Shown: positions 6,739 through 62,204 of the stretch, piece after piece
Numbering within the stretch: position 1 is the stretch's first letter
Layout of the letters: each line of letters opens with the position of its first letter
Source of the DNA: Massalongia carnosa
Taxonomy: Eukaryota
Assembly (NCBI GenBank): GCA_965645245.1
Contig: OZ287076.1
Location: 1,302,001 to 1,366,000 of the forward strand
Length of the DNA stretch: 64,000 bases
Reading direction: 5' to 3'
Made by a program: the position numbers and the translations under genes
Notes under the pieces: model-generated
What the model was told of the DNA's origin: nothing
The model's input: the letters and a program-made list of their open reading frames with translations, nothing else
Database searches by the model: none

Positions 6739-8466
6739 CAGTCAGATCGGGTTATAAGAAACTCCAAAATCGTAGCATCTAGGTTTCTTATTAGGCGAGG
6801 TTTCTAATATCAAAATTCTTGGCATATTTTCAAGACTATACCTATCGACTATCTAATGACAAAGAAATCCGTCATTACAGCTTGCCTAGAGCTTATCGCC
6901 ATTTAGGTCTTGGTATCCCACTCTTTACGATTCAGACGACGTATCAATTCATCGTCACCGACCTCTCGTTGCTCCTCATATAACCGTAACGTTTCAAGAG
7001 CTCGTAGAGCGTCCTTGTTTTGGACACGTGATACAATGACCTCCTCCGTCTCGTATTCCCTTTCATGGCCATCATATATAGCAACGATGTGATCCTCCAA
7101 ATCCTCTTCGGTATCCTCTACCACCTCTTCAACAGGGTTCAGAAATTCGCCAATACGCATGGCGCTTTGTATATGACCACGGTCTTGCAAACGCCGTATT
7201 GTAGCTTGCATCTATAGTCGTTGCTCCGTTTCTTGCTCTTGCGCCCGAGTCTCATTGAGATAGCCATATTTCTCTGCCTCTTCTCGAGTCATTGGCCCAT
7301 ATTTTGCCCCGATTACACGAGATTTCAGTCAACCTTACGACTTACGTTGTCATTAAACCAGCGTAAATACTCCCGAAATATATCGCCCGACATCCAAGCT
7401 CTGCTGTTACTGCGTCATATCATATGCAGGTTACAAGCGTGAACATCCTGTGAACTAAAGGCACGCAGATTTTTGGCCGTCCCAATTATTGGAATTTGCC
7501 GAGATACCTGAATATTTGCGACCGAGGTTCTTTTGCCTCCTGCTTACTAATTTCCAGTTTAGGCAATCATATGCTATATGCGAAAAGCTTCAGATATCGG
7601 CACGACTTCGGCAACTACGAGGAGGCAAAAGTATGCAGCAAGAATGCTACATTTCGGAGGCAATTCAGCTGTTCATGATCACTGAGTGTCTCGGTGTCTC
7701 CGGTCAGCAACGAGGTGTATTTTGCCCAGCTGAAAAGGTTCAAAGGAAGCAGGTTCATGCATTTGATATAGGCCGAGATGGAGGCCCTCAAGCAGTATAA
7801 AGAGACGATGATTCCTCATGTAATTTAGCTATTCAGTCGTTCAGAATTCAGTGCAGCAGATAGCTAAATTTGGAGTATCTTCACTGGAAATACGGAGTAC
7901 CTGCATCACGTTTGCCAAGCACTTCTCTTTGCCTATCCTTGATAGCCCTAGACCCTCTTCTCCTGCATCCCGCTGCCGTATGCCTGGTTGATTTTTTGTT
8001 CAACACCAATGAATCATATGAGAAGCTTGTGAGTTCCAGTAGCATTGCAACAGAAATTTGCAGTAATTCTCGCTTTTTCCACCTTGCCGCCTGGGAGCTG
8101 TTCCGTAGCCAATGTAGTGCTGGTAGCCTTCCAAAATAACGCAGTTTCATCCACGTTGTAGATATCTTCCTGATCGTATGATAATAGCTGTACCAGTATT
8201 GCCTTTTTTCTGCTTCTCTCTCTGAGAGAAAACGGGGATGTAGGACGTTTTCGAGGATTTCGAGATAGAGTCTCCGGATTTTGACTATTATATCTCAAAG
8301 AAGTCGAAGGAGAAGTTATATTTACTATAAGAAACCACCGCAAAATTTTTAGAGAAAGTTAAGAAACTTTCTAATAGAGCGAGGTTTCTTATCCCTCACC
8401 AGAAAAAAACCGGTCTTTTCGTCCGGGTTTCTTACTAGCCGAGGTTTCTTATAACCCGATCTGACT
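6739..8466 (-). mobile_element. Tigger/CENP-B-type pogo transposon remnant nested in the Fot1-like element
   Basis: TIR CAGTCAGATCGGGTTATAAGAAAC at 6739 and its reverse complement at 8444-8466. Peptides DIYNVDETALFWK...RITANFCCNATGTHKL and GTAKNLRAF...AWMSGDIFREYLRWF. Confidence 0.82.
7487..8005. mobile_element. Solo LTR (519 bp)
   Basis: TATTGG (probably mutated TGTTGG)...TTCAACA, with 5-bp TSD CCAAT at 7482-86 and 8006-10. Removing it rejoins the transposase (FIG|TAKNLR). A second, fragmented copy lies at 60002-62145. Confidence 0.85.
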
Positions 8467-17699: not shown

Positions 17700-18581
17700 G
17701 ATCTCCTCCTTCGAACAGGATACCGGTGGACGGTGCTGATGCTATGCTGAAAGGCGGAAGACTGTACTCGATACTCCTGGTAGTGAGGTAATTGAGCGGT
17801 GGAGATGGTTTTTAGATAGCGGTACAATGTCATTCAACCGTCTACCTTGAACTCATGCCTGCCGACCTTGAAGGAATAACAGGATTCGTACGGAGATAAT
17901 GCACTCTTTGCTCTAATATAGGCTATTCTCGTAGCCTGGAACCACGTACTTATCTTCGTAGGCCTGCTGAGATACTCTGTAAATGGGTAGGTATTCCATA
18001 AGAGTGGAAGTAAAGAGTACGAGTACCGAGTACAAACGACAAAATAAAATTTACACCAAAATTTATACCCCACCAAAATCATCAGACTTTTCATCCATTA
18101 TTGTAACGTCTATTCAGTTCATTTGATGATGTTTGAATTTCATTTGCTACAGCTAATAACCAGTCATTCTACCTTCGTCATCAATCACCGCTTGCAGTCG
18201 TTTGGGCATCGTGGCTACCTGTTCGTTGACAAATCGCTGAGAAACATGACTCTATCCCTCATAAATCAACTCTTTAGTAGTAGCATCGTTCCAATGAGGA
18301 TATTTTCGAAGATATTTTTTGACAGGCTGCCAGCAATTCTCAATTGGAGATAGATTAGGAGATGAAACACAGTTGAAATAATGATTCAACTCATTTTTCT
18401 CCTTCCAGATGCGTACGGTATTCGATTTGCCTGATCCATGACCTGGATCACCATCTTCTTCTGAAACGAACCTCTGACCCGTTTGCAGTCATGAAAGAAC
18501 AATCGAATTCAAAATCTGCTCAATGTAGGCCTTTTGCTTCATCTTTCCGTTGATATTACCCGAAACATTGTAAAAAAAATA

Positions 18582-21204
18582 GGGAACGGATAACAGGACA
18601 CCACTTTGGTTAGATAAACACCACCTCCGGTTAGATAAACACCGCTAGCCCAGGTAGGGTAGATTCCTCGGCCCCGCCCGCCTCTTCCCCTTTTAGGTCT
18701 AGTTAGCGGTTGAAACTCCCACATTCTACCTGCACCTCATCCTTGCACTCATATTTCACATTTGATCTGCAGGCACCCTGCCGCCGCCACGTCGTCATGC
18801 CGCTTCGACCTCCCGAAGATAGTCAATCCTTTGCCTCACTAGAAGACCTGTTGCTTAGAGTCAATGAGCATGCCGCCCCCGAAGGCTACGCCGTGGTGCT
18901 TCTTCGAACCAAGAAAACCAAGCTGGGAGTGAGAAATAAAGCTTGGTTAAAATGCGACCGAGGTGGAAAAGTCAGAGAACCGCAGGGTCAGGATCGTCGG
19001 CACACCAGCAGTCGACTAATTGCTTGTCCATTTGCCCTGACAGCCAAAATGGACGACGAGGTATGGTTTTTGGAGGTGGTAAATGGGACACACAATCATC
19101 CGTCCAGTCTTGCTGGCTCTCATCCTGCCTTGAGAAAAATCGCTCTGACCGGTGTAAAGGATGACGTTACCAGACAGTTAACAGTACAAACGTCGGCGTC
19201 AAAGGTTTTGTCTAGTCTGCGTGTTCCCGATGTGAATGCAGATCTCAGTCCTCATGATCCCAATGCCGAGATCATTGTGACTCCGATGTTTAAACCTCGG
19301 GACATCTACAACTTAAAGGCGCAGATGAGACGTGATGTCTTGGGACCATTGACTCCTATTCAGGCATTGATTCGTGAGTTTGACGAAAAGGATTGGGTGT
19401 ACAACTTTCAACAAGACATTCATCAGCAGATTACGCATCTCTTCTTCATCAAGGGCAGTTCCCAAACTCTTCTGATAGATAATCATGAAGTTCTCATTAT
19501 GGATTGCACGTACAAGACCAATCGATACAAAATGCCTCTTCTCGTCATCAGCGGACAAACCGCGCTACATACTACCTTTTATGTCGCCTTTTGCCTTTCT
19601 GATCACGGAGACAGCAGAGGACTACATCTGGGCTTTACAGCAATTGAAGGAGGTGTATTCTCGATTGGAACTTCCTGATTCGATTATTCTCGTGTCCGAC
19701 ATAGAGAAAGGATTAATGTTGGCATCTTCCATAGTCTTTCCAAATATCAATCATTTGCTATGCATCTAGCACATCAATCAGAATGTGTTGACAAAGAGCA
19801 AAAAACCTTTCGACAATGAGGAATGGAAGATCTTTTTGTCAGATTGGAAATCAGTGATCTATGCAGCAACCGAGCCTCAATTTTGGAAGCTATGGGAGCA
19901 GTTTTCTGCTACCTATATGACTTCTCATGAAGATTGTATTCGATATTTGAAGTCCACCTACATTGATAATCATCGCGATCGCTTCGTGGCATGCTACACC
20001 GACAAGGTGCTGCATTTTGAGACAACGGTAACGTCGCGAGGGGAAGGCGCACATGCAGTATTAAAACGTCAATTAGGATCATCGACCGGAGATTTGAAGC
20101 TGGTAGTTGACGGCATTAATCTGCTACTAAAAAATCAGTATCATGATCATCTGATTGCTTTTGAAGAAGCCAGAACACGTTTTCCACTTCATCTTCGCAA
20201 AGTTATCTTTCAGCAACTGAGAGCATTTATCAGTCCCTATGCCCTGAAAAAGATTCTACACCAATACGAGTTATTAACAGGAAGACCGACTGTTATTCCA
20301 GCTTGTACCAACGTCTTCACTACCATCACCGGCTTGCCCTGTAGTCATCTGATTCAGCAACGATTATTCGAGAATGAAGGAAGTCTGAAATTGGAAGATG
20401 TGCACCCGCATTGGAAGTAGGTTATTGTCATCTGATCGATGGTCAGCGATCAGCTACTAACAACAGTTCAAGGTTGGAAAAGCGCGCCCCTCCGATTGCT
20501 TTGATTAATCCTCTTCTTCTAGTGAGGGAACCGGAGATAGCCCGACCTCGTGGTCGCCCTCAGGGAGCGGAAAACAGACGAGCGGAGGCATTTGACAATT
20601 CCACTCATCGATTACCATCTCAATTCGAACGGGTTGAAATGGAAACAGCTGATGCAATAGCTCCGGAGGTGGAACGAGCTATTCATCGAGCCAATACTAC
20701 ACCAGGCAGGGTAGGACGTCGGGGGCGAGGGCGAGGGCGAGGACGAGGGGGAGGGAGAGGAGGGGGAGGGGGGATTGGTGAAAGAGCTGAGACAAACACA
20801 AGGACTGGCCGAGCTAGGGCTAGGGCTAGTCGAGGCAGAGCTGGTCGAGGAAGGGGAGACGGGATTGGCGGGGATGCAGCAGATGGAATTGGTGGGGATG
20901 CAGCGAATGCGGCTCCAATCAACTGATTTGCATTACTAAGCTTCAAATAAAGGGTGCGATTCATGAAGACAGTGCCAATCGACAAATCCAATGTCTAGTA
21001 ATCGATGGTTGAAAGCTGAATTGAATTTTTTCTTGAGGTGTCAATGTTGGGATGTGGACTGCTAGACCTAAAAGGGGAAGAAGGCGGGCGGGGCCGAGGA
21101 ATCTACCCTACCTGGGCTAGCGGTGTTTACCTAACCGGAGGTGGTGTTTATCTAACCGGAGGTGGTGTTTATCTAACCAAAGTGGTGTCCTGTTATCCGT
21201 TCCC
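18582..21204 (+). mobile_element. Mutator-like element (MULE) with inactivated transposase
   Basis: ~120-140 bp TIRs GGGAACGGATAACAGGACACCAC... and A-rich TSD AAAAAATA on both sides. FAR1-like (WLKCDRGG...CPF...HNH), MULE (VLIMDCTYKTNRYKMPL) and CT..TITGLPCSH domains. Frameshift ~19595 and TAG at 19767. Confidence 0.93.
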
Positions 21205-21247
21205 AAAAAATATATCTGATTTAAATCTGTGTCCCATCGCAGTCTAG

Positions 21248-21461
21248 TGTTATGATCTACCTAGAGACTAGTCATAGGGACACTAGAAACGAATACAATA
21301 AAGATGAGGAGGGAATAGACAATCGACAACCAGAACCTGCCCCTATATATCCTCTACTCTAGTACCCATGTGGTATAGTCGTCATGGAACCTTCTAGAGG
21401 CTGCGGGAACGTGTTCCATCTACGATTGCCCTAGGCGGTATCGAAGTCGTGCCGTGTGACA
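21248..21461 (-). mobile_element. Solo LTR (214 bp), related to the LTRs of the 49217 gypsy element
   Basis: TGTTATG...GTGACA with perfect TSD TCTAG; shares TAGAGACTAGTCATAGGGAC and ACAATAAAGAT blocks with the other family members. Confidence 0.9.
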
Positions 21462-22121
21462 TCTAGAATTCTCTTCTTGAATACAATTCTGACAATATCT
21501 TTCTTCAGATTTTCGTATGATTCGTAGTTTTCCTTAAGGATCTCAGTCGAAATGAACCTCATCGCTGAATCGCACATGATGTCAATCCTCCGGCTCAGAA
21601 TATTTCTCAAGCATTATAGTTGCTCAACTGACTCGATGCGCTGCTGTTTCTTATTAATTCAGCCCTTTCTACAAGAAATACACTTATGATAATCCATCGT
21701 ATTCATCGCTCTTTGAACAGTGCGATCACTACAATTCAAGCCTACTTCGTAGTTCAATTGTTCTCAAGTTAAAGCTCGTGCTTCAATGTCTTCGATTTCA
21801 AGAATACGCTTCATTTCTCGTATTTGTTGAGATGTTATGATAAATTTTCGACCTCGCCGCTCTGATATATCGAAATTATTATGATGTCTTCGTGAAGATT
21901 CGCTACGTAGATATTTGTAGCCTTGTTGTCTTGAAACATTGAACACACGAAAAACGTCATCCTTATAATAAGATATTCCTATTGCTTCGCAAAATTCTAC
22001 AGCTCCTTGAATTTTTGCCTTATTAGGTGTAGGAACTTCGACCCTGTAATTTCTAGAAGTGGAGTGGTGGATCGATTCATGATTATTTAATATGATGGCT
22101 CCGTACTCTGGATACAAGGTA

Positions 22122-32085: not shown

Positions 32086-32535
32086 AAAAAGGGTTGGAGA
32101 AAAGAACGGAACAAATTACGTAACTTTACTGGATTCATCTATTCTTGCTCTAACTCAACCTTAGTTACGATCCGCCTTCGGCATACCGTAACAAGAGCTT
32201 AGTTAGGCCTAGCGCCATTTGCTAATCTAACACGCTACCGCAGACACGACTAACCGTGCGACCGAGGTAAATCCGATGGACCGCACCCGGAGCTACGCTA
32301 CAGGTGCGGCTTACCTCTATGACGCATTTTTAAAAAATTTCTATTATCTATCATCAACCATTTATTATTCAACCACATTATGTCTGATTCGTACAAGAAA
32401 CGAGAGGCTAACATTGCAAAGGCCTTAGATGCATTTGCAAAGAAATCAGCCGCAGCCTATGCTGTGACGAAGCGAGATAGTGAATAGATTTCTACCATTG
32501 CGCCACCTGTCCTTCCCGACCAAAAGGCACAATAC

Positions 32536-33863
32536 CACGCGGGGGACAAAAAAAAAACTACACCAAAATTTAACCGGGCTCAACTCCCCACCAAAACACA
32601 AGCAATTTACATACGATTTTGATGGGATAATTATCATTATTATGAATTCTAAACATATCGAGACTCCTACCAAAGCTAAAATTCAGGGAGCCGTTGAATT
32701 TTGCGAAAAGCAAGGCATTTCTTATCACAAAGAGGATGTTTTTCGCACATTTGATATGGAACGTACGAGGGGCTATGCATACCTGCGTGAAGGAGCCTCA
32801 TCACGCCGTCATCATAATAATTCCGATGTTTCTGAAGCTCGTGGGCGTCACAAAATTGTTACGCCTAAATTGATTAGAGAAATGGAACGGCCATTGGAAG
32901 AAGAAGGTATGGAGGCGCGCGCTCTTACATGGGAGCAATTGGGCTTCGAAGTAGGCCTAGACTGCAGTGGCAAAACCATTCAACGAATCATGGGCACCAT
33001 GGATTATCACAAATGCATTGCGTGCAGAAAGGGATGGGTGAACGAGAAGACAAGAAAGCTTCGTATGAAGTGGTCAGATGCTATGCTTTCTAGATATCCA
33101 AATGCAGAAGACTGGAAACAAGTTCGATTTAGTGACGAAGTGCACTTTGGATGGGGACCTCAGGGCAAATTACGCATCATACGAAGATTAGGTGAACGTT
33201 ATTGTCATGATTGTATTCAAGAAGCAGATGAACCAGACGAGGCCGTCAAGAAGAGACATCACTGTTGGGCTGCTGCAGGTCATGACTTCAAGTCAGATAT
33301 CTACTTTTACAGAGTTCCTGGAAACTCCAATGGAAAGATGAGTCAACGAGTCTATATCGACTCTATATTGGAGCCTATTGTGAAGCCCTGGATTGAAGCA
33401 AAACACGATTTCGTCTTAGAAGAAGACGGTGATTCTGGACATGGACCAGGCAAATCAAACATTGTACGCACTTGGAAGCAGAACAACGATCTGAAGCACT
33501 ATTTCAACTGTCCATGTTCACCTGATTTGGCCCCCATAGAAAATTGCTGGCAGGCCCCGAAGCAATATTTAAAAAAATATCCTCATTGGGATGATGATAC
33601 GACCAAGGGGCTAATTTATGAGGGGTGGGCGAACGTTTCCCAGGCATTTATCAATGAACGGGTGTCTACTATGCCAGATAGATTGAGAGCTGTTTTGGAT
33701 GGTGAGGGTAAAATGACTGGTTATTGAATAGATTGAATGAATTGGATGACTGGTTGTTGAAATGGTGATTATCCCATCAAAATTGTATGGAAATTGCTTG
33801 TGTTTTGGTGGGGGGTTGAACCCGGTTAAATTTTGGTGTAGTTTTTTTTTTGTCCCCCGCGTG
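32536..33863 (+). mobile_element. Tc1-like (DD37E) transposon, apparently intact, with ~100-bp TIRs and a 5-bp TSD
   Basis: CACGCGGGGGACAAAA... inverted ends; AATAC duplicated at 32531-35 and 33864-68. Confidence 0.93.
32642..33727 (+). CDS. Tc1/IS630-superfamily transposase, 361 aa, uninterrupted
   Basis: ATG 32642 MNSKHIETPTKAKIQGAV; WKQVRFSDEVHF, LEEDGDSGH, SPDLAPIENCW; 37 residues between the second D and the E. Confidence 0.9.
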   Translation: MNSKHIETPTKAKIQGAVEFCEKQGISYHKEDVFRTFDMERTRGYAYLREGASSRRHHNNSDVSEARGRHKIVTPKLIREMERPLEEEGMEARALTWEQLGFEVGLDCSGKTIQRIMGTMDYHKCIACRKGWVNEKTRKLRMKWSDAMLSRYPNAEDWKQVRFSDEVHFGWGPQGKLRIIRRLGERYCHDCIQEADEPDEAVKKRHHCWAAAGHDFKSDIYFYRVPGNSNGKMSQRVYIDSILEPIVKPWIEAKHDFVLEEDGDSGHGPGKSNIVRTWKQNNDLKHYFNCPCSPDLAPIENCWQAPKQYLKKYPHWDDDTTKGLIYEGWANVSQAFINERVSTMPDRLRAVLDGEGKMTGY

Positions 33864-33913
33864 AATACTTAGTCCGCAGACCAAGCTCTATTCTACTATA
33901 ACGTATCTTATAA

Positions 33914-34025
33914 CCGGATGAACTTTATCACCGGATGAACTTTATCACCGGATGAACTTTATCACCGGATGAACTTTATCACCGGATGAACTTTATCACC
34001 GGATGAACTTTATCACCGGATGAAC
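33914..34025 (+). repeat. Tandem array of a 17-bp unit in the left TIR
   Basis: CCGGATGAACTTTATCA x6 plus a partial unit; about two inverted units at 39285-39317. Confidence 0.95.
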
Positions 34026-39217: not shown

Positions 39218-40031
39218 ATAGCTTTATATTCATTGTTCATCGGATATTCTAGTTTTAGGTCGTAATTACCATTTCTGGAGGGGTGTTCATCCGGTGATAA
39301 AGTTTATCCGGTGATAAAATACGTTAACTGGGACTCATGCTATGTTCGCTGTAGGTCCTGCCGTCCGCACCACGCATGGTCGAACCGTTACACTACCGCC
39401 CGTCTAGCTGCGGCTAGCCCCTAGCCGCTTCCAGTTATAGTTAGCCCCGAAGAATGGGCTCTTCTTAGCATACGGCCCTCGCCGATCCGACTTAGAGAGT
39501 TTTCATCCAACGCTTTCCTGTTTCGTCCTAGCTTCAGTCCGTCGAAGCAAGGCGAAAAAGCGAGGAACTCAGGTCAGGAATCGAACTCACGACTAGTACA
39601 CCGATTGATGACTAAGTATTCTGTGACGAAGCGAGATAGTAAATAGATTTCTACCATTGCGCCACCTGTCCTTCCCGACCAAAAGGCACAATACTTAGTC
39701 CGCAGACTAAGCTCTATTCTACTATAACTGGGACTAATGCTATGTTCGCTATAGGTCCTGCCGTCCGCACCACGCATGGTCGGACCGTTACATATGCCAA
39801 AGAATTCGATATTTCACCTCGTCTATTTCAAAGAAGACTACATGGATATAACAAGCGAAAGGTAGTCAATATGAGGCTGTCTGCTATACTAGAACTAGTC
39901 CGGAAAGAGTATATTGAATTTCTTGATGATATTGAATTATCAATGAAATTGCTATTGATTCGCGGTGCAGCTAATTATTTGTGGCAATTGTAATATCCTT
40001 CCTCGTCTCTATCTTCTCTCACCCGCGTAGG

Positions 40032-40733: not shown

Positions 40734-41275
40734 TGTAACGGTTCGACCAAGCGTGGTACGGACGGCAGGACCTACAGCGTATATAACAGGAGTCCCAGTT
40801 ATAGTAGAATAGAGCTTGGTCTGCGGACTAAGTACTGTGCCTTTAGTCGGGAAGGAAATAGCGCAATGGTAGAAATCTATTCACTATCTCGCTTCGTCAC
40901 AGAATACTTAGTCATCAATCGGTATACTAGTCGATTCCTGACCTGAGTTCCTCGCTTTTTCGCCTTGCTTCGACGGACTGAAGCTAGGACGAAACGGGAA
41001 ATCGTTGGATGAAAACTCTCTAAGTCGGATCGGCGAGGGCCGTACACTAAGAAGAGCCTATTCTTCGGGGCTAACTATAACTGGAAGCGGCTAGGGGCTA
41101 GCCGCAGCTAGACGGGCGGTAGTGTAACGGTTCGACCATGCGTGGTGCGGATGGGAGAACCTATAGCGAATATAGCAAGAGTCCCAGTTATAGTAAAATA
41201 GAGTATTCTACCTTTTGGTTAGGAAGGACAGGTGGCGCAATGGTAGAAATCTATTTACTATCTCGCTTCGTCACA
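40734..41275 (+). mobile_element. TRIM copy B (diverged, flanks do not match)
   Basis: LTRs 40734-40901 and 41123-41275 around the same internal domain; flanks GAATA / CAATT. Confidence 0.88.
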
Positions 41276-44058
41276 CAATTCACTAGTTAACGAGACAAAC
41301 CGCTCAACGGGACTAACTTAATTTCGCTTAATTCTTGATGCCTCCCTCCAACCAATTTTACATACAGTTTCGGCTTCAATATCTAATAATTGTAAAAATA
41401 ATTTTATCTGCATGTAAGTTTACTAAAACAATCACATTTTACGTGGTAGACGAATAATAAGACCCCGTCTGGTAGTTTTAACCTCCTTCACCACTTCAAC
41501 CACCTCTACCACATCAACTACCTCTATCACCTTTACCACCTCTACCACCTCCACCATCTCAACAACCTCTACTACCTCAACTACCTCCACCACCTCAACT
41601 ACCTCGACTACCTCAACTACCTCCACCACCTCAACCACCTCTACCACCTCAACAATCTCTACCACTTCAACTACCTCCAGCACTTCAACTACATCTACTA
41701 TTTCAACTACCTCTACTATCTCCTTTGCCCCTTCTACCGTCTCTGTCACCCCCATGATTTGATAAAGCATGAAGGGGGGTAACAAATATTCTTTTGAAGG
41801 ACTTATAGGCCTTCTTTGTAAATTATAGGGAAATTTTTGAGGACTATTCGTAGGAGATGTAGACTTTTGTCCTAGTAAATTAGGCCCAAATCGACATATT
41901 TCTCTAAAGGTTTTGATAAGATCCTGCTCAGCTCGTTTCAACTGAGCGGCCTTCTTTTCATTATCCTTCATCTTCTGTTGAGTTTTAGCTCATTGCTATC
42001 TTTATTGAACGTCTTTGAGGCTCAGAACTCGAGCCTTTCCACGATAGTAAGCACCACTACGATTAGCTCAATAATGCCGCCGTAAATTGGCCTAAAGAAG
42101 CTCGTTGTTGGTAATTCGTAGCAAGGTAGAGTCGGCAAATGCGTATTTGGCCCCCTTTATCAATCTGTTTAGCGCTCGGGCGGGTGTTGAGTCTGAATTC
42201 TTATCAGATCGAATTCGACGAATCAATTGATCTTATTGATCGATATTTGCAGGTGTTTTTCTACCTCGATAACAGCTTTCTAAGAATTCTGAATTGTCGG
42301 AGTGTCAGGGTCAGAGACCGACGTAGTCTCTGGATCAATTCCGACATTTGTAAAAGTAGAAGTGGTAGTGATAGTGGTGGTAATTATGCTGTTAGTCTTT
42401 CGCAATACCGATTGTTTATTAGTGAGTTTCTGAAGAACTAGAGAAGGATTATATAATACTAATCCGGTGACTCTCTACGCAGTGAGCACATTTATAGTTT
42501 TGATTGCTCCTTTTCTTGCTTTTTGTATGATCTTCAAAAAGTCTACCTTGTCAATCGAACAAACGTTAAACTGAATGACGGCCTACAGTTGTTTTTTATA
42601 CTCCCGAGACAGGGGACCGAAAACGCTCACGTCTAGAGGTTGTAGTAAATGTGTAGTATGAGGAGGTAGACAGAGAGGAATTATTTTCTTTTCATTGCAA
42701 AACTTGATAAATTCAGTAGAAATATGAGAAGCATAACCGTCTACTATTAGAAGTCGATAATCACAATTTAAATATTTTGCAGTAGCAGGTTCAAAACATC
42801 TTTTCAACTAATCTGTTATGCTCTATCTAGAGACAAGTCATAGGGACGCTAGAAACGAAATACAATAAAGATAAAGAAGGATAAAGACAACTGACAACCC
42901 GAACCTGCCTCTATATATCCACTATTGCGCTAGTACTCATGTGGTATTAGCGCGGTAGAATCGTCTAGTGACTGCAGGAACAAAAGTTCCTGCGCGTTAC
43001 ATCTACGGTTTGCCCTAGGCGGTGCCGAGTTTATCCGAGTACCGAGGTTGTAGAGAGTAGAATCGTAACACAATCGATACCTAGTTCGTTATCTGTCTAT
43101 CCGTTTTCGCTGGTAGCGATTTCGCTATGAATATCTTCCAGAGCATCAAACCAGGCCTTCAGTTTGTTTACCCCTTTGAAAATTACGAAGAGGGGTAGAC
43201 TGCGTCTAGTAGCAGAAATAGCCTGGATTAATGACACCTATTCTCGATTACCTGATTGTGCTGAAAAGGCCTGCTTTTCGTGCTTAGATATTAACACTTT
43301 AACACTAGCGGCTACCCCTATCATGAATCCTTTTTTATCCATATTGTAGATGTCTTCATTAAGAGTTCCGTGTTTTTGTTTGACGGAAAGAAAAAGCTCG
43401 AAATAATATTTAAAAACCTCTTCGTTCTCCGCAAATAACCGTTCTTGATTTAATGTGCGACTATATTTGGCCTGCAAATCGGGATAAAGATGTAAAATAT
43501 GCTGTTGCCAATTAACTCCTAGGGCAGTATGATTTCCCCTTGCTCGCAATAATTCGATAGCCATCTGACGCAATTGAGCGACTTTAACAGGCCAGCCCCA
43601 GGCGTACAATTGTAAAACCCAGTCCTTCAAAGCGTTCTCTTCTTCGGGTATCAATAGCTGTCTAACTTGATCGGATCAAAATCGTGGTTGACGACCCTGA
43701 ATGCGAGCATAAATTGTAGACTTTAAAACGCCATACAGAGCAGCTGCTTTCGTGATGGAAAGAGTCTTGTCGGTCTGTTTCCAGGCCAGAAATGCTGATT
43801 GTAATCGTTATTGATACGCGGAGGTAGGGTGGGAAGAAGGAAGCTTGGATATTTTTTCAGAGGTAGGTTTTTTACAAACAGCCATAATTATAGTTTTTAA
43901 TAAGATTATATTGATTTGTTTTACTATTTGAAGCTACTTTTGTATGGAAAATATATGATGAAAAAAAAGGCTTCAACATGTAAGATAGTCCAAAAATAAA
44001 TATTTCGGATTTTCTTAGTCCCGTTGAGCGGTTTGTCCGGTTGACTAGTGAATTACGT
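41276..44058 (-). mobile_element. pogo/Fot1-like transposon (degenerate)
   Basis: TIR ACGTAATTCACTAGTCAACCGGACAAACCGCTCAACGGGACTAA ending at 44058 (+TA), truncated copy at 41276. DIYNMDKKGF, LLIVDGYASH, PPHTTHLLQPLDVSVF. Confidence 0.88.
42814..43070 (-). mobile_element. Solo LTR (257 bp), 21248/49217 family
   Basis: TGTTATG...CGTAACA; TSD TAATC/CAATC. Confidence 0.88.
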
Positions 44059-44082
44059 TAGCTAAACAGTTTGGCTTGGTGG

Positions 44083-45900
44083 CACGCGGGTGACAAAAAA
44101 AATTTTACTCACAAATTTTGACCCCTTTTCAACCACCATATTTTGTACACCATCATTTAGCCATAAATAGAGCTACCACACCAGTTTTAGAGTCGCATGA
44201 CGCTTAGACCCATTATCCTACCCCTAAATAGGCCAAAATTCAGGGTGCAGTAGAGTTTTGCGATGCGATAAAGATTCCTTATTTTAAAGAAGATATTTTT
44301 CGTGTTTTTCGGCACTTTCCAAAACAAACTGGCTGGAAAATTTTGACAAGAGAAAATTTCAGTCGTACTAGACACAATACCGATATTCCTGAAAAACGTA
44401 GACGTCATTCAATTGTGACCCCGAGACACATACGGGAGATGGAGCGTATTTTGAAGACAGAAGGCATGGAGGCTTGCGGGTTAACGTGGGTTCAATTGGG
44501 CTACGAGATGGGACTGGAGTGCAGTAGTCGTATAATTCAGAGAGTTATAGGTACGATGAATTATCATAAATACATTGCATGTAGAAAGGGCTGGGTCAGC
44601 GAATCGACGGCTAAACGTCGTTTTGAATAGGTTATCGTCATGAAAGAAAGATATCCTGATAATGATGACTGGTTTTCTGTACGATTCAGTAATGAGGTAC
44701 ATTATAGCTATGGGCCTCAGGGGAAAATTCGCATCATTTGCAAGCCGGGTTAATGATACTATCAATATTGTCTTCAAGAAACGAACGAATTAACTGAAAA
44801 AGACTTGAAAAAAAAAGCATGCTTGGGCTGCTGTAGGCCATAATTTCAAGTCAGACATTCGTTTATACGACGTTCCGGGCAACACTAATGGAAAGGTGAG
44901 TCAAAGGGTCTATATTGATCAGATTTTGAAGCCTGTCGTCAAGCCGTGGCTTGACAGAGGTTATGATTTCTGTCTAGAAGAAGATAGTAATTCAGGGCAT
45001 GGTACTAGTAAAAACAATATCGTACGCAAATGTATAAGAGGGACAGTAGACACTAGTCCTTATGGGTTATAATGCTCAGTGTGACTGCTAATAGATTGGT
45101 AGGTGCTAAAGCTAAAAGCTGATTCCCTGAAGATGGGAATCGAGCTTTCTATATACCCCTTGGGGTCCTATTTACTAACTACTTGTCTGGTTACCTGTCT
45201 GCCTTGCTGCCTTCAGCTGAGGTCTAGTAGATAGCCTTGCTGCCTTCAGCTGAGATCTAGCAGATAACCTTGTTGCCTTCAGCTGAGGTCTAGCAAATAG
45301 CCTTGTTGCCTTCAGCTGAGGTCTCCTAGGCGTCCCAGGCCTCCCATGAGATCGAGGCTTATCTGAATAGCTTCAGTTGCTGCCTAACAAACTGGTAAGG
45401 CTGATTGCTGATGGCTTAGTATTGCTATCCGCCTTATCATGACTAAGCATCCGGATTATCAGTCACCCGGTCTTCTTGGGTGAGTCATCCCAGGAGCTAG
45501 CGCAGTCCTGTATTGCCGCGCTATTACAAAATAGAAGGAAGAAAATGGGTTGAAAAGCTATTTCAACTGTGCTTCGTCTCCTGATCTCTCACCTATTGAA
45601 AATTGCTGGCAGCCACCCAAGCAGTATATTCGCAAATTCTTTTATTGGGATGAGGCCACCACGGTATGACTGATCATGAGGGGTGGGCCACGGTTTCGCA
45701 AAATTTCATCAATAGCAAGGTAGCTGAGATACCGAAACGGCTGCAAGCGGTGATAGATGGTTACGGTACGATGACGGGTTATTGATAGTAGTAGGAGTAG
45801 CAATAATAATAGTATGGTGCCACGATGCAAATAGGGGTCAAACTTTGATAGTTTGGTAGGGTCAAAATTTGTGAGTAAAATTTTTTTTGTCACCCGCGTT
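44083..45900 (+). mobile_element. Tc1-like (DD37E) transposon, degenerate, 5-bp TSD
   Basis: CACGCGGGTGACAAAAAAAATTTTACTCACAAATTTTGACCC inverted ends; GGTGG on both sides; LEEDSNSGH...[11 protein letters not shown]. Confidence 0.9.
45033..45528. mobile_element. Solo LTR (496 bp) with internal ~33-bp tandem repeats
   Basis: TATAAG (probably mutated TGTAAG)...ATTACA; TSD AAATG/AAATA; GCCTTGCTGCCTTCAGCTGAGGTCT about four times at 45200-45325. Confidence 0.8.
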
Positions 45901-46046
45901 GGTGGGTAAAAAGGCCGAAAGCTAGATAGATTAACGTCAGCCTTTGTGTCACGATTCTACACGGCACGACCTCGGCACTCGGCAACGCCTAGGGCAATCG
46001 TAGATGGAATACGCAGGCACTTTCGATTTCGTTCCCGCAGCTACTA

Positions 46047-48431
46047 ACGTAATTGCCACCTATTCGGGCCAGCCACCTATTCGGGCCAGCCACCTATTCG
46101 GGCCGGCCACCCGCAAATTTCACCATCATCGCCAAATAGAGAAACACCATCAGCGCATTACCTCTATCAGCATCAAAACTAGCTAAAAACATCACTGTCC
46201 ATGGCTAATTCCTTCCAGGCAATCTTCGCGAACTTCACTTTCCCATTTAAAGCATGATATCGTGCCTTTTGTTGGCCAATGCTTCATCCTTTTGCCTCTT
46301 CTCCTCTACCAACTCCCGTTCTTTACCCACCGTCAGCACTTTTGCTTTTCCATGCCCTTTTCTAGACGTCTTTTGACGTCGTTGATCCTGTTTGGCTGTG
46401 ACGAAGCGAGATAGTGAATAGATTTCTACCATTGCGCCACCTGTCCTTCCCGACCAAAAGGCACAATACTTAGTCCGCAGACCAAGCTCTATTCTACTAT
46501 AACTGGGACCTGCTATGTTCGCTGTAGGTCCTGCCGTCCGCACCACGCTTGGTCGAACCGTTACACTACCGCCCGTCTAGCTGCGGCTAGCCCCTAGCCG
46601 CTTCCAGTTATAGTTAGCCCCGAAGAATGGGCTCTTCTTAGCGTACCGCCCTCGCCGATCCGACTTAGAGAGTTTTCATCCAACGCTTTCCCGTTTCGTC
46701 CTAGCTACAGTCCGTCGAAGCAAGGCGAAAAAGCGAGGAACTCAGGTCAGGAATCGAACTCACGACAAGTATACCGATTGATGACTAAGTATTCTGTGAC
46801 GAAGCGAGATAGTGAATAGATTTCTACCATTGCGCCACCTGTCCTTCCCGACCAAAAGGCACAATACTTAGTCCGCAGACCAAGCTCTATTCTACTATAA
46901 CTGGGACCTGCTATGTTCGCTGTAGGTCCTGCCGTCCGCACCACGCTTGGTCGAACCGTTACATTGGCAATCAATTCCTGATTGGTATGCTGTAAAATAA
47001 TTCTATCTGCAACAGCATTCAAAGCGGTTGTTTTTAGAACATCAACATGCGCGCGGAGAGACGGAGTCATACGAGTCAACAAAACGTCGCTGGCCTCTTG
47101 AATCCGTTTGGTCGTTTTGGGAGTGACATTATTGACGTCGCGACAAGATGGAGGAGTGACTGTTCTAGGTAATTTGTCTATAACATGCTGAGGATTGTAG
47201 GGAACCAGACCTGTTCCTCGCCAGGCACTCAGGATGTTGGTGGTGGACATGGCCTGTTTTCTTGCGACCTGAATTAGATTTAGAAATTCCACCTTCGAGA
47301 CGTTTACGACCCCGTAACGAGATCTGCTAGAAACTAATTGCTTGTAGGCCTTACTCAATGGTCCAAAAACACCCACGTCTAATGGTTGCAATAGATGGGT
47401 GGAATGAGGAGGTAGACACAAGGGTACAATCTTGTTTTGATCGCAGAACTCCATGAATTCCATTGTGATATGACTGTCATGCCTATCGACAATCAACAGT
47501 CTATAAACCCCTTTAGTGCGACTTGTTTGTGGATGGAAAACTTCTTTTAACCAATGCAAAGCTATTTCCCGGTCCGTCCATCCATTGGGACTGACCCGAA
47601 TAGTTGTTTTCTCATCCGTAATGGCTGCATACCAGGCTTGCTGAATCTGAGCACCTTGAAATATGATATAAGCAGGAAGAATACTCCCGCGAGAGGATAT
47701 ACACTCAATTAAAGTGACCCAATCCCTGTTTCCTGGATGCACATTGAAAGGTGCTGTATTACCTCTTATTATGACCTTAGAACTGTCCGCAATGCCCATG
47801 GCGAATCCTTTTTTATCCATGTTGTATATATCTGCATCTGCGACACCGTATTTCTCGCGAGTGGTCATGTACAAATCAAACCAATCCTTCATGATAACAG
47901 GGTCGCTGGCGTCTTTTCTGACCTGATCCAAATTTCTATTGTATTTTAACTTGAATTCAGGATGTCTGTTCAAAAAGTTTTTATACCAATGGTGTCCAAG
48001 CGCTTTTCGATCCCCTTTGGCCTCCATCAAACTCTTAGCCATGCCTTCAAGATGTATAATTCGAGGGGGCCAGCCCCATGCAGTCATTCTTTCAATCCAT
48101 GTAATCAGTGCTTGTTCCTCCTGTACGGATAGTCTTTGCATAGTTTGATGATAGGATTTTGCAGGTTGTCTCCCCCGTAAACGAGCTTGAAGCGTCGATC
48201 GAGGAATGTCATAAACACGGGCGATTTCTCGTTGTGATATATTGGGATTTTCCCGCAAATATTCAACAGCTAATTCTAAACGAGTATTAGAATCTGATAC
48301 ATCTAATTTTGAATTTATTTGAATATTGTTGGATGGTGGTGATGAATGATAATGGAAAAGAATTAGGTAGCCAGTAGATTTTGATGGGGCGGCCCGAGTA
48401 GGTGGCTGGCCCGAATAGATGGCAATTACGT
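46047..48431 (-). mobile_element. pogo/Fot1-like transposon, near-complete ORF, 3' end interrupted by TRIM C
   Basis: TIR ACGTAATTGCCA(C/T)CTATTCGGGCCAGCCACCTA, TA on both sides. HTH (YDIPRSTLQARLRG), YNMDKKGF, LIVDRHDSH, QPLDVGVFGPL. Confidence 0.92.
46397..46963 (-). mobile_element. TRIM copy C, intact (567 bp)
   Basis: Two 169-bp LTRs (46397-46565, 46795-46963) that appear identical, TG...CA ends, 229-bp non-coding interior, perfect TSD TTGGC, PPT-like AGACGGGCGGTAG. Confidence 0.95.
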
Positions 48432-48758: not shown

Positions 48759-49278
48759 ACGACTATACCATATGGGTACTAGCGCAGTAGAGTATATATA
48801 GGGGCAGGTTCTGGTTATCGATTGTCTTTTTCCTTCTCCATCTTTATAGTATTCGTTTCTAGTATCCCTATGACTTGTCTCTAGGTAGATCATAACAATT
48901 TGATTTTGAATAGCTTCATTTTAAAAGGGTCAATCAATTGGTATAATGTAAATAGTTTGAGAAATGCGTCATGGAGATGATAACGTAATAGAGATAAGCT
49001 GCATTTAGAGCGTAACTCCGGGAGCGGTCCATCGGATTTACCTCGGTCGCACGGTTATTCTGACATCAACATTTACGAGCATAAGACGATTCGAAAATAT
49101 ACGATTTTATGAACAAGTGATAACAACACGAAAGAAATACGACGAGAAAATTTCATTAAATATTGTGAACACATTAACGTTGATTTAAAAAATCAATTAT
49201 TAAACGTGATCAATTGTGTCACGATTCTACCTTTTGCCTTTAGTAACTAAGCCTAATAGAGCACCTACGGAAACCGTA

Positions 49279-49348: not shown

Positions 49349-50927
49349 TAGACGGACCTGTCGGCCGGCCGGCAGGAGTCACGAGATAGCGCGGAAAACT
49401 CTTTCGCGACCTTACTGAATGGGGACTAGAGAGCGCGTTGCTTTATAGGGAACGAGTCCGACTTTTCGAGTCTTTCTTTCCTCTTTATCTTTATTGTTTT
49501 CGTTCATGGCGTCCCTATGACTAGCCTCTAGGTAGACCGTAACATTACAATAAAGATCATACTTCAAACTACTATCCCATGTGAAGGATATAAAAGAATT
49601 CACCTGACAAACAAGATATTGATACCGACACCGGGAATCAGACATCGAAGAGAGACGACCACCGAAACTGAACCCAAGATACTAGACACCGATAATCAGA
49701 CATCAGCCTATAGCATGGCACGATCAACTGGGACCAAGGTCCCAAGACACCGAGACTCGATAATTCCCGAGACTAGAGAGACAGAGGACGAACTAGAGGT
49801 AACGGAGCCTCTGATGATTGTAAACCTCAGACAGCTGAAGGCATGGATGGAGCATGACCCTCAGGCCGTGTCCGACATGCTCCAAAACCTTAAGGAATCA
49901 TACAACGACTCCGTGGAACGAGGCAACCGAGCCATTGACATGGCCGAAGGATCTCAGACCAGAATGAACCAGCTGGAGGGCGTGGTGTCCTACCAGAAAG
50001 AAGAAATCAGAGAATTACAAGGCCGGCCCCCCGGGGCCAGCACGGAATCGAGCAGAAGCGAGAGTCTTCCCGTAGCAGTCGTCGCAGCGACGACAGTAGG
50101 AAGAGATCGATGAAACTGCCTGACCCGCCCATCTTCACCGACGGAAAGGAAATCTCCATAGACCACTGGCTGACAAAGATGCGGAGTAAACTAGCAGCCA
50201 ATGATGACCATATGCCGTCGGAACTGCTTAAGAAGGCATACGTGGAGAACCGGGTAGGAGGAGAGGCAATGGGACACCTGGAACCCCGACTTCGGAAAGG
50301 TGCGATGAAGCCCTTTCTGACGGCCGAGGAAATGTTTGATCAATTGGAACGCACATACGGCGACCCCAATCGAAAACAAACTGTGATGAACGACTTTCGA
50401 GCTCTTCGTCAAGGAAGCAAGGACTTCAACACCTTTTGGGCTGAGTTTCAGCGTCTGGCAGCTGAGCTAGACCATAACGAGGCTACGCTAATTACTGAGT
50501 TGAGGCACAAGCTTTCTTGGTGAATGAATCGGCAATTGGCCACCGGTGCCGAGGCACCAACCGATCTGTATGAGTTCGCGCACAAGTGTCAGCGCTTGTA
50601 TCAAGACCTCAAGGAATCGGACCGAAGCAGGGCCAATATGGATCGTTATGCGGAAAGTAAATGGCCCAACACCACTGCCTCGACTTTTAGCGCCCCGACC
50701 ACGACGACGACAGCCTCCACCATCAAGACATATATCCCTCCCCATCCCGCCATCACGACCACGACCCCCAGGCCCTCTTCTTACATGACGGATGAAGAAA
50801 AGGAACGATTGAGCAGGGAAGGTCGTTGTTTCTTTTGCAAGGAGCATGGACATTTGTCCAGAGATTGTGAGCTGAAGAAGAAGAGCCGGCCAGCGAAAGT
50901 GCAGGAAATCGCTGAGATTGCGGACTT

Positions 50928-58963: not shown

Positions 58964-59831
58964 ACATGGAACGAGCTCAGGAAAGGCAAAGAACAGCGGC
59001 TAACCGACACCGGACGGAAATCTCTTACGAGGAAGGAGACATGGTGTGGCTGTCAACCAAGAATATCAAGCCTGAACGGGCATGCAAGAAACTAGAGCAC
59101 AAGATGATTGGTCCCTACCGAGTCAAGAAATTGGTAGGATCATCCTGTCAACTGGAGCTTCCACCCTCAATGAAAATACACGATGTGTTCCACACCAGTT
59201 TGCTCTAGAAAGTCGCAGATGACCATCTTCCTAGCCAGATAAACGACCCACCTCCACCGGTAGTTGTCGAAGGGAATGATAAATGGGAACTAGACGACAT
59301 ATTAGACGCTCGGAAACGCTACCGGAAGATTCAGTACAAGGTCAAGTGGAAAGGAATTGACGAAGAACTGACATGGTACGATGCTGACGGCTTCGAAAAT
59401 GCAGAAGAGCTAGTGGAAGACTTTTACCAACGACACCCTAACAAACCACGATAAGAAATGGCAGTTCTAACCGCATCAAATCTCGACGATCAGAACCCGG
59501 GGATAACGCGGACGTTATCGCGGTCAGGTGACTCGCGATCTAAAGCAGGGGGTAGTGTCACGATACTTACTACCTTTTGCCTTTAGGAAATAAGCCTAAA
59601 CGAGCACTTACGGAAACCGTAGACGGACCTGTCGGCCGGCCGGCAGGAGTCACGAGATAGCGCGGAAAACTCTTTCGCGACCTTACTGAATGGGGACTAG
59701 AGAGCGCGTTGCTTTATAGGGAACGAGTCCGACTTTTCGAGTCTTTCTTTCCTCTTTATCTTTATTGTTTTCGTTCATGGCGTCCCTATGACTAGCCTCT
59801 AGGTAGACCGTAACAAATTGTAATCAATTAG

Positions 59832-60001
59832 TGTGACGGTTCGACCATGAGTGGTGCGGACAGCAGCACCTACAGCGAATATAGCAGGAGTCCCAGTTAT
59901 AGTAGAATAGAGCTTGGTCTGCGGACTAAGTATTGTGCCTTTTGGTCGGGAGGACAGGTGGCGCAATGGAAGAAATCTATTCACTATCTCGCTTCGTCAC
60001 A
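59832..60001 (+). mobile_element. Solo LTR of the TRIM family
   Basis: TGTGACGGTTCGACC...CTTCGTCACA; flanks ATTAG / TTCAG do not match. Confidence 0.9.
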
Positions 60002-60443: not shown

Positions 60444-60502
60444 ACTGAAAATACGGAGTACCTGCATCACGTTTGCCAAGCACTTCTCTTTACCTATCCT
60501 TA

Positions 60503-62076
60503 CACGCGGATGAAAAAAAAAGCAAGGTGAGCCGAAATTCCCCTACCAAAACTTACCCTTTTCTTTCCTTTCTTCTTCCCTATCTTCTTCCCTATTCAAT
60601 ATTTCAATTCGTATGACTATTGAAAAATTCTACATATATTCTATTCAATAGCCAGTCATCGCCCCCTCAGCCCTAATTACCTCTTCCAATCGTTTAGGCA
60701 TTGATCGAACTCTTTTATTGATGAATTCCTGCGTTACCCGTTCCTCTCCATCCCTAATCAGCTGCTTCAAGTGTTATGGTCTACCTAGATCTAGTCTATA
60801 GGGACACTAGAAACGAAAAAAATCAAGATGAAGAAGAAAAGAAAAATCGAAAGACAAATCTCGCCTCTATAGTCCAGCGGCCACTAGTCCTCAACCGACT
60901 CAACCGCGGCTTGTTCCGCTTATATCAGCCTAAACTCGAGCTCGAGAGTTAGATCCGAAGTAGCTAGGTCGATAGTCTGGTACCGAAGTAGTGTCGAGTA
61001 AAACCGTGATATCAAGCATACTTTCAAACATGCTGCTTTGCTGGCTGCCAGCAATTTTCTATAGGGGAAAAATCAGGTAATAAGGCACAATTGAAATAAT
61101 GCTCTAAATGATAATCTTCCTTTCATTTCTTGACGGTATTTCTTGTCTTGCCCGTGCCATAACCAGATTTTCCATCTTCTTCAAGTCCGAAGTCATCCCT
61201 ACGCTCCAGCCAGGGCTTGACGACGGGGTCAAGAACGGATTCAATATACACCTGATGAGTTATTTTACTATTACTGTTACCCGGCACGTCATGAAATATA
61301 ATATCCGACTTGAAATTGTAGCCAATTGCAGCCCAGCACTATTTTCGTTTTCGATCTTTCTCAGGAGGCGGGTCACGATGCTGTATGCAATGCCAACGAT
61401 ATTATGTTCCGGGCTGACGAATGATTCGTAACTGTCCTTCCGGCCCATATCTAAAATGAAGCTTATCACTAAATCGTACGGGATCCTATTGCTCCGGTTT
61501 GGGATATCTGGTTAGCATTATATGAGCAAATTCGACCCGTCTTTCCATAGGTGGGTCGGGCAGCCATCCCTTGACGCAGGCTAGACATTTCTCATAATTT
61601 AGAGAATCCGACATAACATTATACATTGTACGACCGACAACGTCAGCCCCAATCTCCATAGCCAATTGTTTCCATGTATATCGTTTTCCTTCCAACTCTA
61701 GCCCCTCATCTTGTAGAATGTGATCTGCCTCCTGTATTTGTGCTCCCGTGACTTTTGATTTGCGACCGCGTGTCTCAACGAGCGTTGAATAATAATGTAT
61801 TCTTCTAGAAGATGCTCCGTATCGAATGATCTTATAGCCCTGTCTCTCGCTTCGAATGCAAAAATGCTGAAAAATCTCTCGAGGATCGATTGAAATGTCT
61901 TTTGCAAGAACAAATCTATAAGCTCCTTGCACCTTGGCCTTTTGAGGTGTATCGTAGTGGGGATGGCATTTGAAATGTTAACTAAGGAAGAAGATAGGGA
62001 AGAAAAAGGGAAAGAAAAGGGGTAAGTTTTAATGGGGGAGTTTCGGCTCACCTTTCCCTTTTTTTTCACCCGCGTG
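60503..62076 (-). mobile_element. Tc1-like transposon, degenerate, 5-bp TSD
   Basis: CACGCGG(A/G)TGAAAAAAAA inverted ends; TSD CCTTA/CCTTG (empty site CCTTG at 7937-41); [25 protein letters not shown]. Confidence 0.88.
60772..61011 (-). mobile_element. Solo LTR (240 bp), 21248/49217 family
   Basis: TGTTATGG...CCGTGATA, perfect TSD TCAAG. Confidence 0.87.
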
Positions 62077-62204
62077 CCTTGATAACTCTAGACCCTCTTC
62101 TCCTGCATCCCGCTGTCGTATGCCTAGTTGGTTTTTTGTTCAATACTCTGTAGAATAAACTCTATGAAGGTTATGTTCACCTTGACTCCGTCGACCAACA
62201 TGTC

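Follow-up and report, generated by a model that had tools for sequence, protein, structure and literature searches.

Transposons of the impala type are about 1.3 kb long, encode a transposase that is roughly 340 amino acids (aa) long and duplicate the dinucleotide TA. The TA duplication is regarded as a hallmark shared by Tc1, mariner and IS630 elements in the sections on these groups in Dupeyron et al. (2020), whose supplementary tree, for the part covering the impala group, lists members from Fusarium, Aspergillus, Penicillium, Talaromyces and Rhynchosporium. For Fot and Fot-like pogo elements, duplications of TAA and TAAA are given in the corresponding passages of Gao et al. (2020). The present study concerns a set of related transposon copies, above all an element with an open transposase gene (element A), in a window of 64,000 nucleotides (nt) from contig OZ287076.1 of Massalongia carnosa; coordinates refer to positions of this window. 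A first-pass annotation of the window had assumed that IS630/Tc1/mariner elements duplicate TA, a premise that holds as a hallmark but, in view of the Fot duplications, not universally; against this background it had proposed a Tc1-like lineage with duplications of 5 bp and an altered target-site geometry. According to our analysis, the copies are very probably ascomycete cut-and-paste DNA transposons with a DD37E transposase homologous to those of Tc1/mariner elements, whose ends would be joined to the target 5 bp apart instead of 2.

Element A occupies positions 32536-33863 (1328 bp), begins with CACGCGG and is bounded by terminal inverted repeats (TIRs), the arms of which measure 103 nt each and are 94% complementary (left arm 32536..32638 on the + strand, right arm 33761..33863 on the - strand, both delimited by arm comparison). 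Its only open reading frame (ORF), at 32642..33727 on the + strand, encodes 361 aa followed by a stop codon, including the catalytic residues D165, D262 and E300 and two N-terminal sub-domains predicted to be rich in helices (residues 10-48 and 75-117). The first-pass annotation had judged this transposase intact; the frame is indeed open, and the motifs FSDE, EEDGD and SPDLAPIE are all found in it. Directly outside each end of the element stands AATAC (32531..32535 and 33864..33868, both on the + strand), which represents the two copies of a target-site duplication and is present once at empty paralogous sites.

Two more copies in the window start with the same seven bases as A and encode broken relatives of its protein, so that the element boundaries together with tblastn searches bear out the three related elements originally perceived. 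Element B (44083-45900; 44078..45905 with its flanks, + strand) has a gene broken by stops and by an insertion of about 0.5 kb (~45029-45534), and four pieces of its transposase are 51-69% identical to the protein of A. GGTGG stands on either side of it; the final base of B is a T where the inverted repeat predicts a G. Element C (60503-62076; 60498..62081 with its flanks, - strand) contains a broken transposase gene, whose product is 48% identical to that of A over 314 residues (tblastn), and a further insertion, some 250 bp long and nested near 60768-61017. The left flank CCTTA and the right flank CCTTG agree in four of five bases. All three pairs of flanks named in the first-pass annotation are thereby confirmed.

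The length of the duplication can be read from sites that lack an element. Element A is inserted in a repeat with at least six copies in the window: the host copy (32458-32535 with 33864-33902) and those near 39617-39728, 40798-40906, 46395-46503, 46790-46901 and 59896-60001. When the sequences to either side of A are placed on five uninterrupted copies of this repeat, they overlap by exactly 5 bp in each. In the alignment, four of these empty copies contain a single AATAC (46863..46867 on the + strand, 46465-46469, 39690-39694, and 59930-59934 on the - strand), the fifth a single AGTAC (40832-40836 on the - strand). The flanks of C map to 7883-8006, again with a 5-bp overlap, and CCTTG is present once at this empty paralogous site (7937..7941, + strand). 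Empty sites had been claimed for two elements before; there are now five for A and one for C. In addition, contigs from public sequencing runs (X1, X2 and X3) join position 32530 to 33864 and omit 1333 bases, with five bases that fit either side. The summed contig depth of the host repeat in public runs is about 10-35 times that of element A, which indicates a very abundant repeat; for this reason the joints probably derive from other repeat copies, and they therefore confirm the 5-bp overlap and do not constitute evidence of a polymorphic insertion.

It could be argued that the elements are ordinary TA-duplicating members of Tc1/mariner and that the 5-bp matches result from chance or from mis-set boundaries. 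TA is the rule in the described Tc1/mariner families, the DD37E groups MS and TRT included, as far as the accounts consulted go, and the imperfect terminus of B as well as the 4/5 match of the flanks of C could be cited in the same sense. The empty sites, on the other hand, establish for A and C where the element begins and ends and that the duplication measures 5 bp, and a survey of relatives allowed the question to be extended beyond the window. From metagenome contigs we gathered 79 homologous loci and located their inverted ends by BLAST and the terminal motif; doubtful loci were inspected individually, and the flanks were then tabulated from the coordinates. Two readable ends were lacking in 42 loci (17 with short flanks, 17 without an inverted repeat, 8 uninterpretable), and six loci were duplicates of another one. 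The remaining 31 loci yielded 32 elements, which together with A, B and C of the window make 35 evaluable elements.

These metagenome relatives show 36-67% protein identity to the window protein. The elements are 1254-1818 bp in size, possess a single transposase gene between TIRs of about 26-117 nt, and have termini that start with CA(C/A)GCGG or, in some members (L044, L050), with CTCGCGG. Perfect 5-bp direct repeats flank 24 of the 35 elements, and not one of these repeats extends to 6 bp; two elements, C and L072, show a 4/5 match, and TA on both sides occurs in none of the 35. Relative to the window protein, the perfect cases are between 37% (L078) and 67% (L002) identical, and those of low identity (37-46%) include L078, L050, L024 and L054. 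Perfect 5-bp repeats are present even on a deleted copy of 571 bp (L058) and on a 226-bp copy resembling a miniature inverted-repeat transposable element (MITE; L078, 3884-4109). When left flanks were paired with right flanks of different elements, a perfect 5-mer appeared in 8 of 1190 pairings, compared with 24 of the 35 true pairs. We took this mismatched-pair comparison as the valid control; another one, in which both boundaries were shifted by 1-3 bases, was discarded because it partly re-reads the same duplication together with the first base of the element. With the control, the empty sites and the complete lack of two-sided TA all standing against it, we assign a TA-duplicating origin of these copies a practically negligible probability. 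The duplication is real, comprises exactly five bases and is not TA; proposed at first from the window, it is a trait of the whole family, with most of the instances located elsewhere.

In locus L078, three adjacent family members lie in one contig (2360-5095), namely one of 1447 bp, the MITE-like copy of 226 bp and one of 976 bp, with flank matches of 5/5, 5/5 and 4/5, the last for 4120-5095. This cluster may reflect local hopping or a preferred landing region. Within the inverted repeat of element A, a motif of the type CACCAAAA occurs twice at a distance of about 30 bp (32559-32600, with its counterpart in the right arm), and motifs like CACCAAAA are seen 25-30 bases from the ends of the distant members L033 and L040. 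Judging by their arrangement, which recalls that of Tc1 elements of the inverted repeat/direct repeat (IR/DR) type, these motifs are possibly candidate binding sites of the transposase.

The flanks also disclose a target preference. For 102 recognisable termini, which come from loci of a few sample series, 87 distinct flanks were counted outward from the element end, separately for the '+' set and the '-' set. T is found at distance 8 in 19/43 and 32/44 flanks, respectively, A at distance 7 in 26/43 and 26/44, C at distance 5 in 25/43 and 23/44, and C at distance 4 in 28/43 and 23/44; A or T follows at distance 3 (32/43 and 35/44), and G at distances 2 (21/43 and 26/44) and 1 (24/43 and 27/44). 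Read toward the element, both ends thus have the same half-site, T-A-n-C-C-W-G-G. The identical half-sites point to a palindromic target, TAnCCWGGnTA, with its central five bases duplicated, as is expected of a two-fold symmetric enzyme that cuts with a 5-bp stagger. A logo from only 26 complete sites displays C-C-T-n-G inside the duplicated bases and, two to three bases further right, T-A; the orientation-specific, asymmetric target that this logo suggested was dropped, as the two ends share one half-site when the 87 flanks are considered.

What kind of enzyme is encoded follows from several comparisons. Among curated models, the window protein matches Pfam DDE_3 with 32.5 bits (cut-off 28.6), while HTH_Tnp_Tc3_2 reaches 26 bits, which is under its cut-off of 31.5, and NCBIfam IS630, with an E-value of 6.5e-8 and a score of 32 bits, likewise stays short of its cut-off of 100. 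When 31 family members are combined into a profile, this profile matches one solved protein, the catalytic domain of Sleeping Beauty (5cr4, E 1e-15), and in this alignment the second D motif (DxxH) and the SPDLxPIE motif line up. In the alignment of 31 sequences, D165, D262 and E300 are all conserved; as 37 residues separate D262 from E300, the enzyme is of the DD37E type. An AlphaFold2 model of the transposase (mean predicted local distance difference test score, pLDDT, 76) finds its best Foldseek matches in the Mos1 DNA complexes 4u7b, 3hot and 5hoo and in 5cr4, with template modelling (TM) scores of 0.72-0.75 on the target. The full-length Mos1 chains align over 365-379 columns, the N-terminal DNA-binding part included; Tc1/mariner-type transposases, retroviral integrases and IstA make up the other matches listed. 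The earlier classification as Tc1-like DD37E is upheld by the DDE_3 score, the match to 5cr4 and the best folds. A zinc-binding motif considered for the stretch GERYCxDCIQ...HCW was dropped, its first and last cysteines not being conserved.

One may ask whether the copies instead belong to a separate deep lineage of IS630-Tc1-mariner, of a rank like Zator, pogo, Gambol or Sailor, in which DD37E would be convergent with that of impala, TRT and MS. The curated models match weakly, DDE_3 being only 4 bits over its cut-off and the two others below theirs, and DD37E is reported to have arisen in several unrelated clades. Furthermore, a published search with zebrafish TRT as the query reports no Tc1 in Dikarya, and in the host table of Dupeyron et al. 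(2020) the rows of Pyrenophora teres and of the Colletotrichum species listed name pogo only. Yet the best match among solved structures by sequence is Sleeping Beauty, an enzyme of the Tc1 family, and impala, a Tc1-like group of ascomycetes, is DD37E and rich in Ascomycota in what Dupeyron et al. (2020) report on it. A lineage of such depth is in our view unlikely, and homology to the Tc1/mariner transposases is the reading that we follow.

A different objection is that the Tc1-like gene might be a mere passenger, the ends and the 5-bp duplication being due to another enzyme acting in trans, for example a Transib-like or integrase-like one. Transib elements are reported to make 5-bp duplications, and the termini of the present elements begin with CAC or CAA, while such systems use CA-initiated ends. 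However, the type of terminus, the size of about 1.3 kb and the 5-bp duplication co-occur with the transposase gene across 36-67% protein identity, and the elements are too small for a second gene. The fold resembles Mos1 and Sleeping Beauty, not RAG1, and the coding sequence is under purifying selection: comparisons of intact ORFs give proportions of nonsynonymous differences (pN) of 0.23-0.39 against synonymous ones (pS) of 0.79-0.88, and for the close pair L002 and L005 the ratio of the corresponding substitution rates (dN/dS) is 0.32. As pN lies far under pS, the gene has been kept working. A passenger gene is consequently very hard to reconcile with the data, and we consider it highly improbable.

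The first-pass annotation had considered the intact copy possibly active; despite its intact ORF, the activity of this particular copy is uncertain. Its protein is 99% identical to the cluster representative P0001, which stands for 42 member sequences, and two positions, M39 and P84, set it apart from the contigs of each of the four public runs. P0001 and the contigs of the four runs have V at 39 and L at 84, and the family consensus likewise has V at 39; P84 falls in a predicted helix of the putative DNA-binding domain. The doubt about activity, which is derived from the sequence, is due to these private substitutions.

Taken together, the observations fit the following model. The transposase, with an RNase-H-like DD37E core and a putative bipartite helix-turn-helix domain, would bind the TIRs that start with CA(C/A)GCGG and then excise the element. 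A two-fold symmetric multimer would capture the loosely palindromic target TAnCCWGGnTA, each active site would attack its own strand on either side of the central CCWGG, and repair of the 5-nt gaps would yield the 5-bp direct repeat. The cut-and-paste chemistry, the capture of the target by a dimer and the change of stagger as the outcome of a changed target-capture geometry are extrapolated from knowledge of the superfamily. The idea of a Tc1-like lineage with altered target-site geometry, put forward in the first-pass annotation, gains support from the family-wide survey and from the empty sites. A more specific form of it would be an ascomycete-wide branch of IS630-Tc1-mariner with a re-built target capture, in which the subunits still read TA, now 2-3 bp outside the 5-mer (TAn|CCWGG|nTA), while the strand-transfer points have moved from 2 to 5 bp apart; we regard this form as tentative and rather improbable.

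The family is large. A protein search returned 422 homologues, and those with a species name belong without exception to Ascomycota (Pyrenophora, Bimuria, Clathrospora, Macroventuria, Ophiobolus, Botrytis, Rutstroemia and Colletotrichum, i.e. Pleosporales, Helotiales and Colletotrichum). An exhaustive search of representatives yielded 3478 clusters of 50% identity at E <=1e-3 and 243 at E <=1e-30; the best 150 representatives are all within the 5-bp family. No relative was found among viral contigs. On the sequence level, the named matches confine the family to Ascomycota so far. A quick tree was computed from the protein of the window together with six intact ORFs of the loci and 60 listed representatives, proteins outside 330-480 aa being excluded; in it, elements with 5-bp repeats are situated on both sides of the deepest, midpoint-rooted split. 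Beyond the contents of the first-pass annotation, then, the trait is family-wide, the target palindromic and the family large. Copies nearly identical to the element are present in runs labelled as lichen metagenome and as four differently coded organisms, in separate studies. This points to a lichen-associated ascomycete as the probable host, unless the element is common to several organisms.

Several points weigh against the interpretation as a family that duplicates five bases by its own DD37E enzyme. No 5-bp repeat is seen in nine of the 35 elements (L001, L012, L020, L023, L025, L030, L033, L040 and L079). Three of them, L020, L023 and L025, form a subfamily with termini starting CAAGG(C/T)CTGG; L020 shows a repeat of 7 bp. 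The other six have good ends and unrelated flanks; in several, GG closes the left flank and CC or GC opens the right one, like single half-sites. We would interpret these six as recombinants between copies or as chimeric assemblies, our one reason being the agreement with the half-site that several of their outer flanks have retained. The metagenome loci originate from few sample series, and the insertions may be partly non-independent in spite of the removal of identical flanks. Neither a de novo insertion nor an excision footprint was seen in the window and the metagenome loci. The loop that follows the first catalytic D (residues 173-195) has a pLDDT <50, and the model is therefore silent on the geometry. 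Finally, the tree covers members of the family only.

Other features of the window relate to these copies. A fourth, decayed copy (D) had been overlooked in the first-pass annotation; it lies on the minus strand (18030..22040) in two parts, ~18030-18578 and 21468-22040, which are split by about 2.9 kb of inserted DNA, with residues 221-361 at 18156-18578 and residues 6-196 at 21468-22036. Its terminus near 18030 is degraded, and its termini are too decayed for a readable duplication. Six copies of a short repeat (about 105 bp, 77-80% alike) are present in the window, at 60767-60871, 21243-21347, 42814-42915, 48797-48900, 49464-49544 and 59735-59815; one of them lies within element C and one adjoins the DNA that interrupts copy D. 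The repeat may be a small mobile element. The insert of about 0.5 kb in the gene of element B (45029-45534) starts with TG and ends with CA, like a solo long terminal repeat (LTR), and includes direct repeats of 57 bp that are 91% alike (45202-45258 and 45268-45324). The host repeat of element A had been labelled as the LTR of a terminal-repeat retrotransposon in miniature (TRIM); immediately downstream of it, at 33915-34000, lies a tandem array with the 17-base unit CACCGGATGAACTTTAT, and units related to CACCGGATGAACTTTAT are found near 39280-39326.

No Tc1-like element with a 5-bp duplication was found in the full-text literature, a search whose scope lay outside subscription journals, Repbase and Dfam. 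The 5-bp Tc1-like family is probably undescribed, although the odds are about even that some database entry already records it. One published insertion deserves attention. The insert in the MFS1 promoter of Zymoseptoria tritici (Birute) has, according to PMC7174668, a length of 1884 bp, TIRs of 62 bp and an ORF of 343 aa of the DDE superfamily; it had no match in Repbase in 2020, displays an odd 'inverted' duplication beside a CTCGTG-type end, and has a TA adjoining the end. The family is labelled DTT or DXX; later work uses DXX, which denotes unclassified class II elements. With an ascomycete host, a DDE ORF and a CTCGTG-type end that resembles the CTCGCGG of L044 and L050, Birute may be related to the 5-bp family, a comparison made by description and not by sequence.

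The TA rule has been built into the classification and the detection of transposons; a Sclerotinia transposon survey, for instance, demanded TA duplications. A large ascomycete clade without TA would therefore be mis-filed or missed. The label DXX and the missing Repbase match of the possibly related Zymoseptoria element hint at mis-filing, and the search based on zebrafish TRT, with no Tc1 reported in Dikarya, would exemplify a clade that escapes detection. Homologous enzymes with staggers of 2 bp and 5 bp make it testable how RNase-H-like transposases set the spacing of target cuts. In addition, an intact 361-aa enzyme whose preferred target is different and partly GC-rich could supplement tools that are restricted to TA, for example Sleeping Beauty. 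If the re-built target capture outlined above were true, TA recognition and cut spacing would be separable, the family would represent a natural intermediate between the bent complexes of mariner/Tc1 with a 2-bp stagger and retroviral integrases or Mu with staggers of 4-6 bp, and it might be a source of Sleeping-Beauty-like vectors with another target preference.

Compared with described systems, the family possesses the DDE domain and the TIRs around one transposase gene that characterize the IS630-Tc1-mariner group, but insertion into and duplication of TA are absent. Its third catalytic residue is E, 37 residues after the second D, which lies within the Tc1-like range (DD34-38E). The transposase of Transib is about 700 aa long and RAG1-core-like; a 5-bp duplication is common to Transib and the present family, whose protein of 361 aa is Mos1/Sleeping Beauty-like instead. 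The catalytic domain of Tc1/Sleeping Beauty (DD34E) is homologous to that of the 5-bp family, with a spacing of 34 there and 37 here, and the segment that links the stretches aligned to 5cr4 counts about 44 residues in the present transposase and about 35 in Sleeping Beauty. With the mariner Mos1 (DD34D), the match extends to the whole protein fold, including the N-terminal DNA-binding part, and both are TIR-bounded elements of about 1.3 kb. Tc1, Sleeping Beauty and Mos1 target TA, in contrast to the 5-bp duplication and the palindromic 11-bp preference here. TRT, Mosquito (MS) and L18 are, in the available descriptions, similar to the 5-bp family in being DD37E, in transposases of about 340 aa and in short elements; those same descriptions report TA duplications and hosts among animals and protists, and they re-assign elements from Mucoromycotina to Tc1. 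Fot and Fot-like pogo elements are also fungal members of IS630-Tc1-mariner with a reported non-TA duplication in the sections cited from Gao et al. (2020); their DDxD transposase has at least 450 aa and their duplication comprises 3-4 bp with TA, whereas here a variable, GC-rich 5-mer, usually without TA, is duplicated. Sagan, a divergent Mariner/Tc1/IS630-like group that likewise occurs in fungi, is described with TA and a long insertion between D and E, as opposed to a 37-residue spacing and no TA here. The closest described relative is most likely the impala group. Compared by description and not by sequence, impala duplicates TA, while the present family duplicates five bases at a TAnCCWGGnTA-like site. 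Common to both are ascomycete hosts, TIRs around one transposase gene and the DD37E signature, as far as impala is treated in Dupeyron et al. (2020).

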